Of a DNA stretch of 64,000 nt, positions 7,257-60,170 are shown in pieces (the first letter of the stretch is position 1; every line of letters starts with the position of its first letter). The position numbers and the translations under genes were made by a program. Source of the DNA: Stegostoma tigrinum. Its lineage: Eukaryota. The notes under the pieces are model-generated. The model was not told the origin of the DNA. It worked only from the letters and a program-made list of their open reading frames with translations, and searched no databases. Location of the stretch: assembly GCF_030684315.1 (NCBI RefSeq), contig NC_081378.1, positions 16,484,575 to 16,548,574 of the forward strand, read 5' to 3'.

Positions 7257-7609
7257 GGATGCGAGTTTGCTCGCTGAGCTAGAAGGTTAGTTTTCAGACG
7301 TTTTGTCACCATTCTAGGTAACATCAGTGAGCCTCCGACGAAGCGCTGGTGTTATGTCCCGCTTTCTATTTATCTGGTTAGGTTTCCTTGGGTTGGTGAT
7401 GTCATTTCCTGTTCTTAAATGACATCACCAACCCAAGGAAACCTAACCAGATAAATAGAAAGCGGGACATAACACCAGCGCTTTGTTGGAGGCTCACTGA
7501 TGATGTTACCTAGAATGGTGACGAAACGTCTGAAAACTAACCTTCCAGCTCAGCGAGCAAACTCACATCCAGAACCTCAACCTGAGCTACAAATCTTCTC
7601 AAAACTCGC
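7257..7609. mobile_element. Fold-back pLTR element of a second PLE family
   Basis: Arms 7257-7407 and 7417-7570, 9-nt spacer, 39-nt unpaired tail, hammerhead motif; TSD TAATGTATGACTT at 7244-7256 and 7610-7622. Confidence 0.85.
7494..7533 (+). ncRNA. Minimal type I hammerhead ribozyme
   Basis: UCA-CUGAUGA-U-GUUACC(UAGAAU)GGUGAC-GAAAC-GUC-UGA. Confidence 0.8.
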
Positions 7610-57200: not shown

Positions 57201-60170
57201 CCTACCTCCCCACCTATACTCTCCTCTCCACCTATCTTCTTTTCTCTCCATCTTCGGTCCGCCTCCCCCCTCTCTCCCTATTTATTCCAGTTCCCTCTCC
57301 CCATCCCCCTCTCTGATGAAGGGTCTAGGCCCGAAACGTCAGCTTTTGTGCTCCTGAGATGCTGCTTGGCCTGCTGTGTTCATCCAGCTCCAGACTTTGT
57401 TATCTCCAATTATTGTACAGACCTATCTAATTCAAAAATATGCCTCAGGAAATGTACTCTGTTGGCCAAATGTGACTCCTGACCCACAATGATGTGGGTG
57501 ACATTCTGAAATAGCCTGGAGAACTACTTAGCTGTAATATGGATAGGAAATAAATTCTCACGTTGCTAGAGACACACAGTATTCTGTTATTGACTAATAA
57601 TGAAAATGTGTCCCAATAAATGGTGGGACAAGTCATGGGAAGAGATGAATGTTTGAGTGGGTTCAATGACCCAGAAACTGAGTGAGCTTTTCTGCCTCCA
57701 TTCCCATTTTCTATAGTTGGTGTTCCAGAACAGATTAAGGGATGCAGGTAATGTGATAAGTTAAATCAGTCGACTCTGTTTTCTCCCTGCAGGACGCACT
57801 TGCTACATCTGCGGTCCGCTCTTTAGCCACACTGTATGGAACACGCTATAGGATCGGGTCTATCTGTGAAGCAATATGTAAGTACAATAACAGCATTCCA
57901 TAACTTCTCTTTCTTTAGGATCAGCCTTGTCTGAATCTGTAACACACTTGCCCCTGAGCCCAGAAAGTTAACAGTTCAAGTCCTGGAGAATTAAGAACAT
58001 GATTTAGACAGCGACTCCAGTGCAGTACTGAGGGAGTACTGCAGTGTCATAGGTACCAACTTTCAGCTGAAGCCCAGGAGACCCCTTCGGGTGGTCATGA
58101 AGGATTTCATAGCAGTGTTTTGAAAGACCAGGAGCCTGTCTGTCCTGGCCAATATCTATTCCTCAATTAACAACAATAAAATAAAATATTTGTAGGAGCA
58201 AATTACTGTAGAAATCCATTGTCAAGGGTTATATAGCATAGCATTTAGAAAGCAATGGCAGGATCAGACAGAGTCAGGATGGATTTATGAGGGGGAAATC
58301 ATGCTTGACAAATTTGTTGGAATTCTATGAAGATGCAACTAGTAGAGTTGATGGGAGAGTTAGTTGATGTAGTATATCTGGACTTTAAGAAAGTGTTTGA
58401 CAAAGGCCCACAGATGAGATTAATGTGCAAGATTAAAGCGCATGGGATTGGAGGAAGTGTATTGCGATGGATAAGAAACTGGTTGGCAGAGAGAAAACAG
58501 AGAGTAGGAATTAACAGGTCCTTTTCAAATTGGCAGGCAGTAACTAGTGGGGTATTGGTGCGGGGACCCCAGCTATTCACAATATATGTTAATTATTTGG
58601 ATGAGGGAACAAAATGTAATATGTCCAAGTTTGCAGATGATACCGATTTGGGTGGGAGGGTGAACTGTGACGAGAATGCAGAGATCCTCTACCAGGATCT
58701 GGGCAGGTTGGGTGAGTGGGCAAATCAATGGAAGATGCAGTAGAATGTGGATAAAAGTGAGGTTATTCACTTTGGAAGGAAAAACAAAAGGATTGATTAC
58801 TACCTGAATGGCTGTAAATTGGGAGAAGGGAATGTGCAGCAGGACCTGGGTGTCCTTGTGCACCTGTTGCTGAACATAAGCATGTAGGTGCAGCAGGCGG
58901 TAAAGAAGGTAAATGCTATGTTGCCTTCACAGTGAGAGGTTTTGAGTACAGGAGCAGGGATGTGTTGTTGCAGTTGTACAGGGCCATGGCAAGACCACAC
59001 CTAGAATAGTGTGTGCAGCTTTGGTCTCTCTTTCTGAGGAAGGATGCTCTTGCTCTTGAGGGTGTGCAGCGAAGGTTTACCAGGCTGATACTAGGGATGG
59101 CTGGTCTGACATATGAGTAGAGATTGACCAGGTTGGGATTGCTTTCTCTGGAGTTCAGACAAATGAGGGGAGATCTCATAGAGACTTGTAAAATTCTAAC
59201 AGGACTGGACAAAATAGATGCAGGGAGGTGCTGATGGTGGGTGTGTCAGACCAGGAGTCACAGCATGAGGATTCGGGACTCAAGGATTTAGGATCGAGAT
59301 GAGGAGATACTTCTTTGCCCAGAGAGTGGTGAGTCTGTGGAATTCATTACCACAGGAAGTAGTTGATGTGAAAACATTGTATGTATTCAAGAGGCGACTA
59401 GATATAGCACTTGGGGCAAATGGGATCAAAGGTTATGGGAAGAAATCAGGATTGGGCTACTGAGTTGGACAATCAGCTGTGATCGTGAAGAATGGTGGAG
59501 CAGGTCGAAGGGCCAACTGTCCTCCTGCTGCTCCTATCTTCCATGTTTCTAGACGCTGGAATCTGTACTGGAAACAAAAACAAGAAATCACAGCACGTCA
59601 GAGAGCGTTCATAGAGTCAGCAAGTGACTGATGAAAGGTATCTGGACTCAAAACATTAGCTTGCTCTCTCTCTCTCACTCACTCTCACTCCCCAGGTGCT
59701 GCCTGACCTGCTGTGATTTCCAGCCTTTTATTGTTTTTAGAACAAAGTATCTGGTTGTTTATCATTGCCGTTTGTGACAGCATGGAAATTATCTGCTGAT
59801 TTTCCTTCTTTGTAATAGTCACTGCATTCAAAAATCACTTAGCTGGCTGTAAAATGGTTCTCCTGAGGTTGTGAATGGTGCTGTAGAGTTGCAAATCTTA
59901 CTTTCTCTGAGGCAAGGTGCATGAATAGATTATAAAACACTCTGGGGCCGAATTGTTTTTCTTACTCTCCCTGTTTCGATTTCAGACCAAGCCAGTGGGG
60001 GCAGTATTGACTGGACATACAACCAAGGCATCACGTTTTCCTTCGCCTTTGAACTCCGTGACACAGGTCGCTATGGTTTCTTGCTACCATCCAATCAGAT
60101 TGTCCCAACCGCTGAGGAGACTTGGTTGGCGATGAAGACGATCATGAGTTATGTTAATGACCGCTCATGA
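45148..60170 (+). CDS. CPA2: Pancreatic procarboxypeptidase A (M14A), CPA2-like; 11 exons, 1257 nt / 418 aa
   Basis: Exons 45148-45212, 46175-46256, 47039-47173, 48210-48308, 49073-49174, 52109-52210, 53531-53641, 54645-54735, 55370-55569, 57793-57877, 59986-60170; all GT-AG and in phase. Signal peptide and propeptide present. Zinc ligands H69/E72 (GIHARE) and H196 (IHSYSQ); R127, N144/R145, Y248, I255 and E270 (FELRD) intact. The family is certain; CPA2 versus CPA1/CPA4 is inferred from the extra Cys pair, Ala268, exon number and synteny. Confidence 0.9.
46175..46256 (+). CDS. CPA2: CPA exon 2 (propeptide)
   Basis: [27 protein letters not shown]. Confidence 0.93.
47039..47173 (+). CDS. CPA2: CPA exon 3 (propeptide)
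   Basis: [45 protein letters not shown]. Confidence 0.94.
47280..47775 (+). repeat. TG-rich low-complexity region
   Basis: Degenerate (TG)n/(TATG)n. Confidence 0.8.
48210..48308 (+). CDS. CPA2: CPA exon 4
   Basis: [33 protein letters not shown]. Confidence 0.94.
48650..48960 (+). mobile_element. Two short tRNA-like SINEs; also at 33241-33350 and 5296-5370
   Basis: Repeated gtagtgtccctacctctgag...gttca..cccacctgctcca...caggttgatta. Confidence 0.7.
49073..49174 (+). CDS. CPA2: CPA exon 5
   Basis: [34 protein letters not shown]. Confidence 0.95.
49434..51584 (+). mobile_element. Penelope-like retroelement (Neptune-like): 5'-truncated RT + Zn-knuckle + GIY-YIG, with inverted 5' pLTR copy
   Basis: RT motifs [16 protein letters not shown] and [44 protein letters not shown]; one frameshift near 50440; 49434-49824 is the reverse complement of the 3' end; TSD TATCTAAATGAATTTG at 49418-49433 and 51585-51600. 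Confidence 0.93.
49530..49561 (-). ncRNA. Minimal type I hammerhead ribozyme in the inverted pLTR
   Basis: Minus strand CU-CUGAUGA-A-GGG(UCUAGG)CCU-GAAAC-GUC-AG. Confidence 0.75.
52109..52210 (+). CDS. CPA2: CPA exon 6 (zinc-binding HxxE)
   Basis: [34 protein letters not shown]. Confidence 0.96.
53105..53420 (+). mobile_element. tRNA-derived SINE with LINE-derived tail; copies at 39340-39660 (+), 35140-35370 (-), 23780-24270 (-), 56367-57530 (+)
   Basis: A/B boxes (agtggtattagc / gggttcaaat), shared core ggtctggcctacatgtgactccagacc. Confidence 0.75.
53531..53641 (+). CDS. CPA2: CPA exon 7
   Basis: [37 protein letters not shown]. Confidence 0.96.
54645..54735 (+). CDS. CPA2: CPA exon 8
   Basis: [30 protein letters not shown]. 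Confidence 0.96.
55370..55569 (+). CDS. CPA2: CPA exon 9
   Basis: [67 protein letters not shown]. Confidence 0.96.
56125..56325 (+). mobile_element. tRNA-derived SINE of a further family; split copies at 16845-17325 and 43600-43995
   Basis: Shared gatgcagagtg...gttcaattcc...gaggtta...taaa.cacc...ctctaa.gagaga; two copies interrupted by later insertions. Confidence 0.6.
56632..56663 (-). ncRNA. Minimal type I hammerhead ribozyme
   Basis: Minus strand CUGAUGA-A-GGG(UCUUGG)CCC-GAAAC-GUC. Confidence 0.72.
57311..57342 (+). ncRNA. Minimal type I hammerhead ribozyme (sense to CPA intron 9)
   Basis: CU-CUGAUGA-A-GGG(UCUAGG)CCC-GAAAC-GUC-AG. Confidence 0.78.
57793..57877 (+). CDS. CPA2: CPA exon 10
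   Basis: [28 protein letters not shown]. Confidence 0.95.
57945..59905 (+). mobile_element. Deu-domain SINE (SacSINE1/AmnSINE1-like) split into 57945-58180 and 59740-59905; decayed copies at 8790-9135, 25100-25330, 60740-60910
   Basis: actccagtgcagtactgagggagtactgca...tgtcctggccaatatctattcctcaa matches remembered Deu-SINE consensus. Confidence 0.7.
58190..59550 (+). mobile_element. CR1 LINE fragment inserted in a Deu-SINE
   Basis: [21 protein letters not shown]; stops and frameshifts. Confidence 0.9.
59986..60170 (+). CDS. CPA2: CPA exon 11 (catalytic E270, stop)
   Basis: [61 protein letters not shown]. Confidence 0.96.

Follow-up and report, generated by a model that had tools for sequence, protein, structure and literature searches.

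The hammerhead motifs spread through the window (the whole 64-kb stretch of DNA that was analysed) are minimal type I hammerheads of Penelope-like element (PLE) pseudo-LTRs, a class described in 2014 (PMC4209133). This upholds the identification, and the match to that class, made by an earlier sequence-only reading. We consider it highly probable that endonuclease-positive Penelope-like retrotransposons of an orectolobiform-like shark genome left these sequences as their 3′ ends (pseudo-LTRs), that cleavage by the motifs is weak and that the copies are mostly inert. The same reading had described one window-wide system with at least three families and three designs; we found instead independent truncated insertions of at least two lineages, namely a Neptune/Nematis-type lineage with about five stem designs and one 3′ end, plus one Poseidon-like design. 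The annotated features are as follows.

7257-7609: family C insertion, with inverted arm 7257-7416, main arm 7417-7609 and 38-nt tail 7572-7609
7244-7256 and 7610-7622: 13-bp target duplication of the family C insertion
7294-7330, minus strand: decayed inverted design C motif, 5′ core short by 3 nt, G12 to A
7494-7533, plus strand: intact minimal hammerhead of design C (C3 7497, GUC 7530, stem I 3 bp, stem II 6 bp); passes the published descriptor
7503: ATG in design C, overlapping A9; 38 codons open to just beyond the element end
14449-14484, plus strand: minimal hammerhead of design A′ (C3 14453, GUC 14480, C15.2 to U, and a 4-bp stem I that includes one G-U); passes the published descriptor; the main copy begins 4 nt before C3, adjoining an inverted arm at ~14401-14448
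14687-14744 (minus), 15027-15124 (minus) and 15123-15181 (plus): three short family A 3′ fragments without a core, flanking a host segment, seemingly inverted
14770-14802, minus strand: old decayed core (C3 14798) with damage to stem II and the 3′ core but an intact 5′ core
15276-15415, plus strand: design B copy (C3 15281, GUU 15310, stem I 4 bp, stem II broken)
15812-15899, plus strand: family A copy whose truncation falls within the 5′ core and which keeps a 3′ core at 15828-15835
29088-29299, minus strand: design B copy (C3 29224, U4 to A, GUU 29195); inverted arm 29223-29299
33828-33908, plus strand: old family A copy without a 5′ core; 3′ core 33842-33849
41690-42558, plus strand: 5′-truncated family A element with endonuclease end, pseudo-LTR and hammerhead (C3 42466, GUC 42493, plus strand); 8-bp target duplication
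42909-43108: design D fold-back insertion; decayed core C3 42991 (minus) with 5-bp stem I, and 3′ half-core 43006-43013 (plus)
43693-43852, minus strand: decayed design B copy beginning near G8 (~43817), with an inverted arm
49433-49824, minus strand: inverted 5′ arm of the longest family A element; 34-nt tail 49433-49466, hammerhead C3 49559, GUC 49532
49825-51589, plus strand: family A body, with RT core and thumb to ~50440, a frameshift, and a 3′ part with CX4CxxC linker, GIY-YIG with CCHH, pseudo-LTR and decayed core C3 51497 (plus)
~49421-49432 and 51589-51600: target duplication of the longest family A element, at least 12 bp
55596-55689, plus strand: design B copy (C3 55600, GUU 55629, stem I lacking), in sense orientation to a zinc-carboxypeptidase gene and 30 nt into one of its introns
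55808-55925: old B-type remnant, 3′ half-core (minus) and decayed 5′ core 55892 (plus)
56528-57405: family A fold-back insertion; arm 56528-57011 (minus) with tail and hammerhead C3 56661; second arm to 57405 (plus) with consensus hammerhead C3 57313, GUC 57340; target duplication at least 14 bp
59553-59753: design E copy (C3 59628, plus strand; both G12 and G16.2 changed to A), accompanied by a faint inverted arm

The sequence-only reading had placed all motifs in PLE terminal repeats. This is shown directly for family A alone, the main and commonest family; A′, B, D and E are tied in through the shared 3′ end, and C by architecture only. In family A, an RT and a GIY-YIG domain adjoin the motif (RVT_1 at E 6e-4, GIY-YIG at E 4e-4; neither reaches its Pfam cut-off, but motif residues are visible), and this region has 365 relatives at E≤1e-10, the best from Stegostoma (97%) and Rhincodon (90%). 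A CX4CxxC stretch upstream of GIY-YIG fits the CX2-5CxxC linker between RT and EN; the family also has 356-nt inverted arms, a 34-nt tail and target duplications of 12-16 bp. The C-terminal GIY-YIG with CCHH and the linker are shared with Neptune/Nematis EN+ PLEs as described in the accessible part of PMC8557442, as are 5′ truncation, an adjacent inverted copy and a 30-40 bp tail at one end; family A is assigned to the two types jointly, as no tree separates them. RT evidence for family C, or for A′, B, D and E of their own, was absent within the window, which also holds no full-length PLE copy and no coding body for family C. The 36-aa start of family C matches only two short unannotated proteins (E 2e-6 and 4e-4), and a search for longer forms of one of these peptides found none, so no full-length protein was reached. 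A clear target duplication was absent for 9 of the 14 insertions tested (chance-length matches of 5-6 bp or none). A long reading frame across the pseudo-LTR (50378-51505) was discarded as a feature, since in the 41690 copy a stop comes at 42235 and P0002 terminates at the same motif.

Family C resembles the Poseidon element PAc of Anolis, as far as the available text of PMC11167929 describes it: the ATG lies at the start of stem II in both, the cut falls 25 nt after the ATG versus 26 in PAc, and the 3′ end at +107, with its 38-nt tail, compares with an RT start at +111-118. This likeness is one of architecture, not of sequence, and stands here without a linked RT or endonuclease. Non-LTR retrozymes also carry PLE-derived type I hammerheads and are reported, in the portion of the preprint at hand, from the sole chondrichthyan sampled (bioRxiv 10.64898/2026.07.22.740005). 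The window has 10 tandem arrays and a set of self-matches, none of which forms a retrozyme-like head-to-tail array of motif-bearing units; in run X2, which carries the same species label, units of 119-133 nt do occur joined head to tail.

All eight cores previously proposed are present, at the right positions and strands, among the 25 CUGANGA..GAAA matches in the window, and all eight combine CUGANGA with GAAANNUH. One extra base between 9 and 10.1 and a stem II of 3-7 bp occur in every one except 15281, which stands as to position but has two stem II mismatches, including the 10.1-11.1 pair, and fails every version of the descriptor. The palindromic 15.2-16.2 pair, with loop 3 absent, is C-G in seven cores and U-G in 14453, where the supposed GAAAC reads GAAAU-GUC; 42466 and 49559 have G-U at 10.1-11.1. 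Stem I reaches at least 3 bp in 7497, 14453 and 15281, as well as in the decayed 42991, where it is a perfect 5 bp; in the family A copies it measures 2, 2, 2 and 1 bp (the last in 56661), below the published minimum of 3. The published minimal-hammerhead pattern (PMC4209133 Fig. S7), re-implemented and run against 300 block-wise dinucleotide shuffles of the window, gave two matches at stem I ≥3 bp (7497 and 14453; shuffle mean 0.01, maximum 1), five at ≥2 bp (0.03 per shuffle) and seven with no demand on stem I (0.14 per shuffle). The seven decayed cores named earlier also proved to be real remnants: the 5′ core is recognisable in 7327(-), 14798(-), 29224(-), 51497(+) and 59628(+), and is lost in 15813 and 33835, where the 3′ core alone is left. 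About five further remnants were found (42991(-), 42997-43013(+), ~43817(-) and 55892(+)/55887(-)). Within the window, a profile built on the common 3′ end recovered 23 pieces at E<0.001, 11 of them its own seeds; the best hit on the reversed-sequence control had E 0.099. Elsewhere, the motif pattern had 0 matches in viral contigs, 6 in prokaryote genomes and at least 119 loci in metagenome contigs. For 89 matches in public contigs, found with a pattern lacking stem I, mean stem I was 2.5 bp versus 1.36 for shuffled partners (maximum 1.73 of 1000); these matches are mutually related, the pattern derives from the window, and offset 3 also scores 1.9. A tRNA gene search found none in the window.

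The architecture agrees with that in PMC4209133: CUGANGA with the extra base, a G10.1-C11.1 stem II and GAAA-CG-UH without loop 3; a location close to the 3′ end, genomes that each have several consensus families, and mostly single truncated copies; and opposite-strand pairs 100-700 bp apart. The main family differs in its 2-bp stem I, against the descriptor minimum of 3; variants with 2 bp are listed there for Drosophila virilis and Culex.

The inference of a very large ribozyme complement holds for motifs rather than for demonstrated ribozymes: two of the eight pass the published descriptor, the main family folds shut in silico, and decay of the copies appears neutral. Most copies look, in these predictions, broken or folded shut rather than active. 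Nearest-neighbour folding, which leaves out the tertiary contacts of the core, favoured two shut monomers of 57313 (-22.8 kcal/mol) over its double-hammerhead fold (-5.5), and predicted that 57313 pairs fully with 56661 in a sense transcript; close motif pairs are inverted, so that motifs would be buried in hairpins. The proposed dimer cleavage lacks a good substrate, as the nearest same-strand, same-family intact pair is 7.1 kb apart. The 7497 motif may be less inert because it keeps stem II (p ~1) and stem I (p ~0.5) in silico. No stem I-restoring change at 49562 reached 5% in run X2, where the sole A>C place is 49732. Changes at the core CpGs stood at 15.6% and 11.8% in run X2 versus ~13-17% at flanking CpGs, and the copies thus appear to decay neutrally; these data comprise 33 listed of 47 variant places, beyond which non-CpG core variants may exist. 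Between lineages the core is better conserved than its flanks, whereas among copies within the genome it appears to be no better conserved.

It is most improbable that the matches are chance, or a SINE-like repeat that merely resembles a hammerhead without being a ribozyme. No hammerhead family appeared among the 59 Rfam matches at E≤10 in the window (hairpin-driven microRNA models over inverted arms, all below gathering scores), and the stem I of the main family falls short of the published descriptor. However, seven matches stand against 0.14 expected by chance, the motif adjoins RT and GIY-YIG, and the stems covary, their pairs varying among designs yet staying paired (2.1-1.1 is U-A, C-G or A-U); family A is also close, by eye, to the Acropora Neptune motif (PMC4209133 Fig. 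S3). Scarcely more credible is the idea that the motifs are numerous working ribozymes, cleaving host or read-through transcripts such as the carboxypeptidase pre-mRNA. The intact-core motifs 55600 and 57313 do lie in sense orientation in one intron, between exons ending near 55570 and starting 57793, the 7497 and 57313 cores are consensus, and dimer cleavage of PLE motifs is cited in the accessible part of PMC6765202. But the 3′ stem I strand of 55600 pairs with none of the eight motifs, 57313 is buried with 56661 in the predicted hairpin, core CpGs decay at flanking rates, and published in vitro activity is low, even as dimers (PMC4209133).

We regard as unlikely, though less remote, that the chief role of the motif is to delimit a short template on its 5′ side, because transcription begins internally or because stem I or a bound protein stops the RT, with cutting secondary. 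In run X2, 5′ ends pile up at 49560 (765 contigs), the upstream edge of the motif, one base before C3, and no 5′ peak falls at the cut site among the six loose ends listed, with 707 further loose-end entries in the run. Summed contig depth (~3e7 at the motif versus 48 at unique flank, depth not being a copy number) barely drops over the cut site, from 32.5M to 29.5M, and falls to 7.5-16M upstream. For 14453, 29224 and 42991, three copies in the window with a start set by the adjoining inverted arm, that start lies 4-5 nt ahead of C3. On the other hand, sister subfamilies with a common core but different upstream sequence would yield the same peak, and the tail end has ~8 nt in common with the upstream edge of the motif, so that microhomology could favour such joints. 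The Drosophila Penelope start site, moreover, lies 125 nt upstream of C3 (371 versus 496; PMC4209133 Table S1 and the available part of PMC2377424).

For the reading that we favour, mostly inert 3′ ends of Penelope-like elements, the following course is plausible. The element RT would have two alternative internal sites, 65 and 99 nt beyond the cut site (34 nt apart), at which to begin; the ends come from X2 loose-end counts (49433, 1282 contigs; 49467, 983), the mechanism is borrowed from the anole element. Copying would usually halt early, often at the upstream edge of the motif, and an inverted second copy may be added; a staggered nick would leave the 7-16 bp duplication, a structure that is observed, in an order of events that we suppose. 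With the motif at most ~130 nt from the 3′ end, even short truncated copies would still carry it, which would account for the high motif density. Judging from the literature, selection on the motif would be confined to source elements, in which cutting of its own RNA by the motif is most likely weak and dependent on a partner motif or an element protein. Inserted copies would then decay neutrally, quickest at the two core CpGs, and be mostly inert. According to the accessible sections of PMC11167929, the anole motif needs protein in order to cut, in vitro insertion does not depend on the motif, and its cut site is not the end of any RNA-seq read. In line with the favoured reading, most listed loose ends in run X12, from another organism, and five of the eight listed pieces match only 49525-49563, the motif itself. 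Against it, four of the 12 joints listed begin exactly at the cut site and the 15124 arm begins within 1 nt of it, which suggests that some templates may be cleaved.

None of the titles listed in the literature searches, whose coverage excluded subscription papers and Repbase, describes shark PLE hammerheads; sharks are absent from the species listed in PMC4209133, and its supplement has no match for shark, Callorhinchus or Leucoraja. Motif density in the window looks far above that behind the 4,000-9,000 motifs of coelacanth and Xenopus, counts that come from a stricter descriptor (PMC4209133). The window supplies a shark member of this class, on record since 2014, and cautions that motif counts are not ribozyme counts. 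The in vivo role of PLE hammerheads is still open according to the parts available of PMC8557442 and PMC11167929. We tentatively raise, at low probability, the idea that the hammerhead fold sets the 5′ limit of a short (~90-130 nt) template mobilised in huge numbers. Most short copies would then begin at the 5′ edge of stem I, however long that stem is in a given design, and a minority exactly at the scissile bond. If this were true, the scissile-bond minority would be a genomic record of in vivo cleavage, which was unseen in the anole-element RNA-seq. Thousands of junctions in a young family make it possible to read, from the 5′ ends of its copies, whether the template was cut and where it was begun.

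All eight of the hammerhead cores claimed in the sequence-only reading were recovered among the 25 matches of a CUGANGA..GAAA scan of the window. The first descriptor of this analysis kept seven of the eight, compared with 0.215 per shuffle (maximum 2, 200 shuffles). We also re-implemented the published descriptor for the minimal type I hammerheads (min-HHRs) of Penelope-like element (PLE) pseudo-LTRs (PMC4209133 Fig. S7), with 300 shuffles as control, and obtained two window matches with stem I of at least 3 (0.01 per shuffle), five with stem I of at least 2 (0.03) and seven with no stem I requirement (0.14). 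The hammerhead motifs in the window are genuine, and the majority fall below the published min-HHR form; only 7497 and 57313 (motifs are named by the position of C3) match the apparent consensus of their own design throughout. The seven decayed cores listed earlier are also all present, two of them lacking the 5' core altogether; with some five additional remnants, the window holds about 20 motifs. The identification of hammerhead-bearing PLEs was correct: the window motifs are min-HHRs of PLEs, a known class, from at least two lineages and probably mostly inert here. A literature search found no paper on shark PLE hammerheads; a 2026 preprint on hammerhead elements (bioRxiv 10.64898/2026.07.22.740005) includes one chondrichthyan.

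The main lineage, family A, is a Penelope-like element, lying in sequence of vertebrate-type composition (window GC ~0.43, CpG observed/expected 0.25). Its body reads:

49825-51589: RT, frameshift near 50440, CX4CxxC linker and GIY-YIG with CCHH

The RT, linker and GIY-YIG with CCHH are shared with Neptune/Nematis-type PLEs, of which a CX4CxxC-type linker and GIY-YIG with CCHH are marks according to excerpts of PMC8557442. Relatives of the RT piece 49824-50441 number 365 at E<=1e-10. Among the named ones Stegostoma comes first (97%, covering 75% of the query), ahead of Rhincodon (90%) and Chiloscyllium (74-79%), so that a carpet shark is the most likely host. This element has a 356-nt inverted 5' arm and a target duplication, with the 34-nt tail on the inverted arm only, and the same build is repeated at 56528-57405. 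Across the post-motif sequence and the tail, A', B, D and E can be aligned with A; these designs therefore form one lineage with differing stems. The family A pseudo-LTR includes a 39-bp unit repeated about three times (42104-42215, 51140-51252, 56893-57006), and the 40-bp tandem array at 42557-42765 is the insertion target of the 41690 family A element. Designs B, D and E carry a pyrimidine tract and CAG after the cut site (55630-55655, 15311-15340, 43014-43035, 59660-59690), followed by ATG (GTG in E). In sequence, this tract and CAG just past the motif resemble a 3' splice site, and in design B the bases around the cut are similar to a branch site. Penelope pseudo-LTRs can contain introns, as excerpts of PMC2377424 indicate.

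Family C (7257-7609) has nothing detectable in common with the family A lineage outside the motif. It carries an inverted arm and a tail of 38 nt, has a duplication of 13 bp, and was inserted into a fragment of another LINE type. The cut falls 25 nt after its ATG, which is situated where stem II begins, and the element ends at +107. By the positions of ATG, cut and 3' end, this architecture matches that of the anole Poseidon element, in which, according to the available part of PMC11167929, the ORF begins at stem II, the cut follows 26 nt on and the RT starts at +111-118. Protein searches from the family C start peptide found no coding body.

Two divergent host genes and other repeats also lie in the window:

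23000-41300 (-): PF09786 gene
45100-57900 (+): pancreatic-type zinc carboxypeptidase gene, exons with Propep_M14 and Peptidase_M14 matches at 47039, 52109 and 55357
6459-7964, 58309-58743, 61673-62299: pieces of another LINE type, with an RVT_1 match at 58309

We take the PF09786 gene to be TMEM209-like, the gene order to be that of human 7q32 and the LINE fragments to be CR1/L2-like. A CpG-rich island at 13750-15750 (observed/expected 0.4-1.0 vs 0.25 for the window) is likely a promoter, and six PLE pieces cluster in it. A motif at ~14611-14640(-) resembles a ZNF143/THAP11 site; 21 nt of this region (14610-14630) are 81% alike to 14381-14401, a duplication that, from the alignment, the A' insertion seems to have produced. 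Within 14678-15190, ~270 bp of host DNA (~14752-15010) stand between short family A fragments and seem to be inverted. Two words, one of 11 nt (14678-14688) and one of 9 nt (15182-15190), are each repeated inverted at the opposite seam, and two of the fragments have a private base change in common; it looks as if one insertion event flipped the segment.

The claim of a very large ribozyme complement holds for motifs, on junction counts in X2, a sequencing run with the same species label; as ribozymes, the window copies are probably mostly inert. There, 192,523 contigs aligned to family A over 421 bases at >=80% identity, and at least 1282 and at least 983 contigs have loose ends at its two 3' ends. 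Family A junctions in X2 number thousands at least, and likely tens of thousands or more. The motif number is probably large because C3 is separated from the far 3' end by only 127 nt.

If the templates were cut products, copies would be expected to start at 49531. Among the loose ends listed for X2, the 5' ones peak at 49560, the base just upstream of C3, with 765 contigs (heterogeneous flanks, agreement 0.37), summed depth drops slightly across the cut site, with half or more lost upstream, and three window copies begin 4-5 nt before C3. Four of 12 listed joints in X2 connect a tail end to exactly 49531, and the window arm at 15124 begins within 1 nt of the cut. The short-copy template may begin at the motif's upstream edge; alternatively, the 49560 peak could come from sister subfamilies or tail-to-edge microhomology. 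Units of 119-133 nt, running from the upstream edge of the motif to the tail, are joined head to tail in X2. Mini-tandems of this kind, of which none were found within the window, would give two motifs the same orientation, a retrozyme-like arrangement.

In silico, the 5' core of family A pairs with the 3' core through a 2-nt slip of stem I, leaving the motif shut, and the predicted stem I probability is ~0 in seven of the eight intact-core motifs and ~0.5 in 7497. With tertiary contacts excluded from the energies, the double-hammerhead fold compares with two monomers as -5.5 vs -22.8 kcal/mol for 57313, -16.7 vs -24.0 for 7497 and -7.0 vs -20.6 for 14453. Close motif pairs are inverted, 57313 being the base-for-base partner of 56661 in a sense transcript, and the nearest intact same-strand pair within one family is 7.1 kb apart. 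The predicted shut folds fit the low published activity of PLE hammerheads: excerpts of PMC4209133 describe min-HHR monomers as inactive and dimers as of low activity, and those of PMC11167929 describe cutting by the anole PLE hammerhead as protein-assisted.

Pairing at 2.1-1.1 is kept across designs (U-A in A, A' and B; C-G in D; A-U in C), with stem I of 2 bp in A, 4 in A' and B, 5 in D and 3 in C. In X12, a run of another organism, 48 contigs aligned to family A; five of eight listed pieces cover the motif (49525-49563) and differ in their flanks, three match elsewhere, and all six listed loose ends fall within the motif interval. Among the matches listed from public contigs, 128 pattern matches gave 92 distinct ones, with C in 61, U in 17, G in nine and A in five at position 17. 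Stem I averaged 2.5 bp vs 1.36 with shuffled partners in the 89 with enough flank, these matches being mutually related, the pattern derived from the window and an offset of 3 scoring 1.9. A metagenome group (L012-L015, L036, L040, L042, L103, L111) pairs stem I two bases further on, which is consistent with a putative 2-nt longer stem III. In X2, 11.8% and 15.6% of summed depth depart from the core CpG at 15.2/16.2, much as at flanking CpGs (~13-17%), and position 11.1 is non-C in ~23%; from 49526 to 49561 there is no non-CpG change of >=5% among the 33 of 47 variant places listed. Several decayed window cores carry CpG-type changes at G12, C15.2 or G16.2. The simplest reading is that source elements are under selection on the motif and inserted copies decay neutrally.
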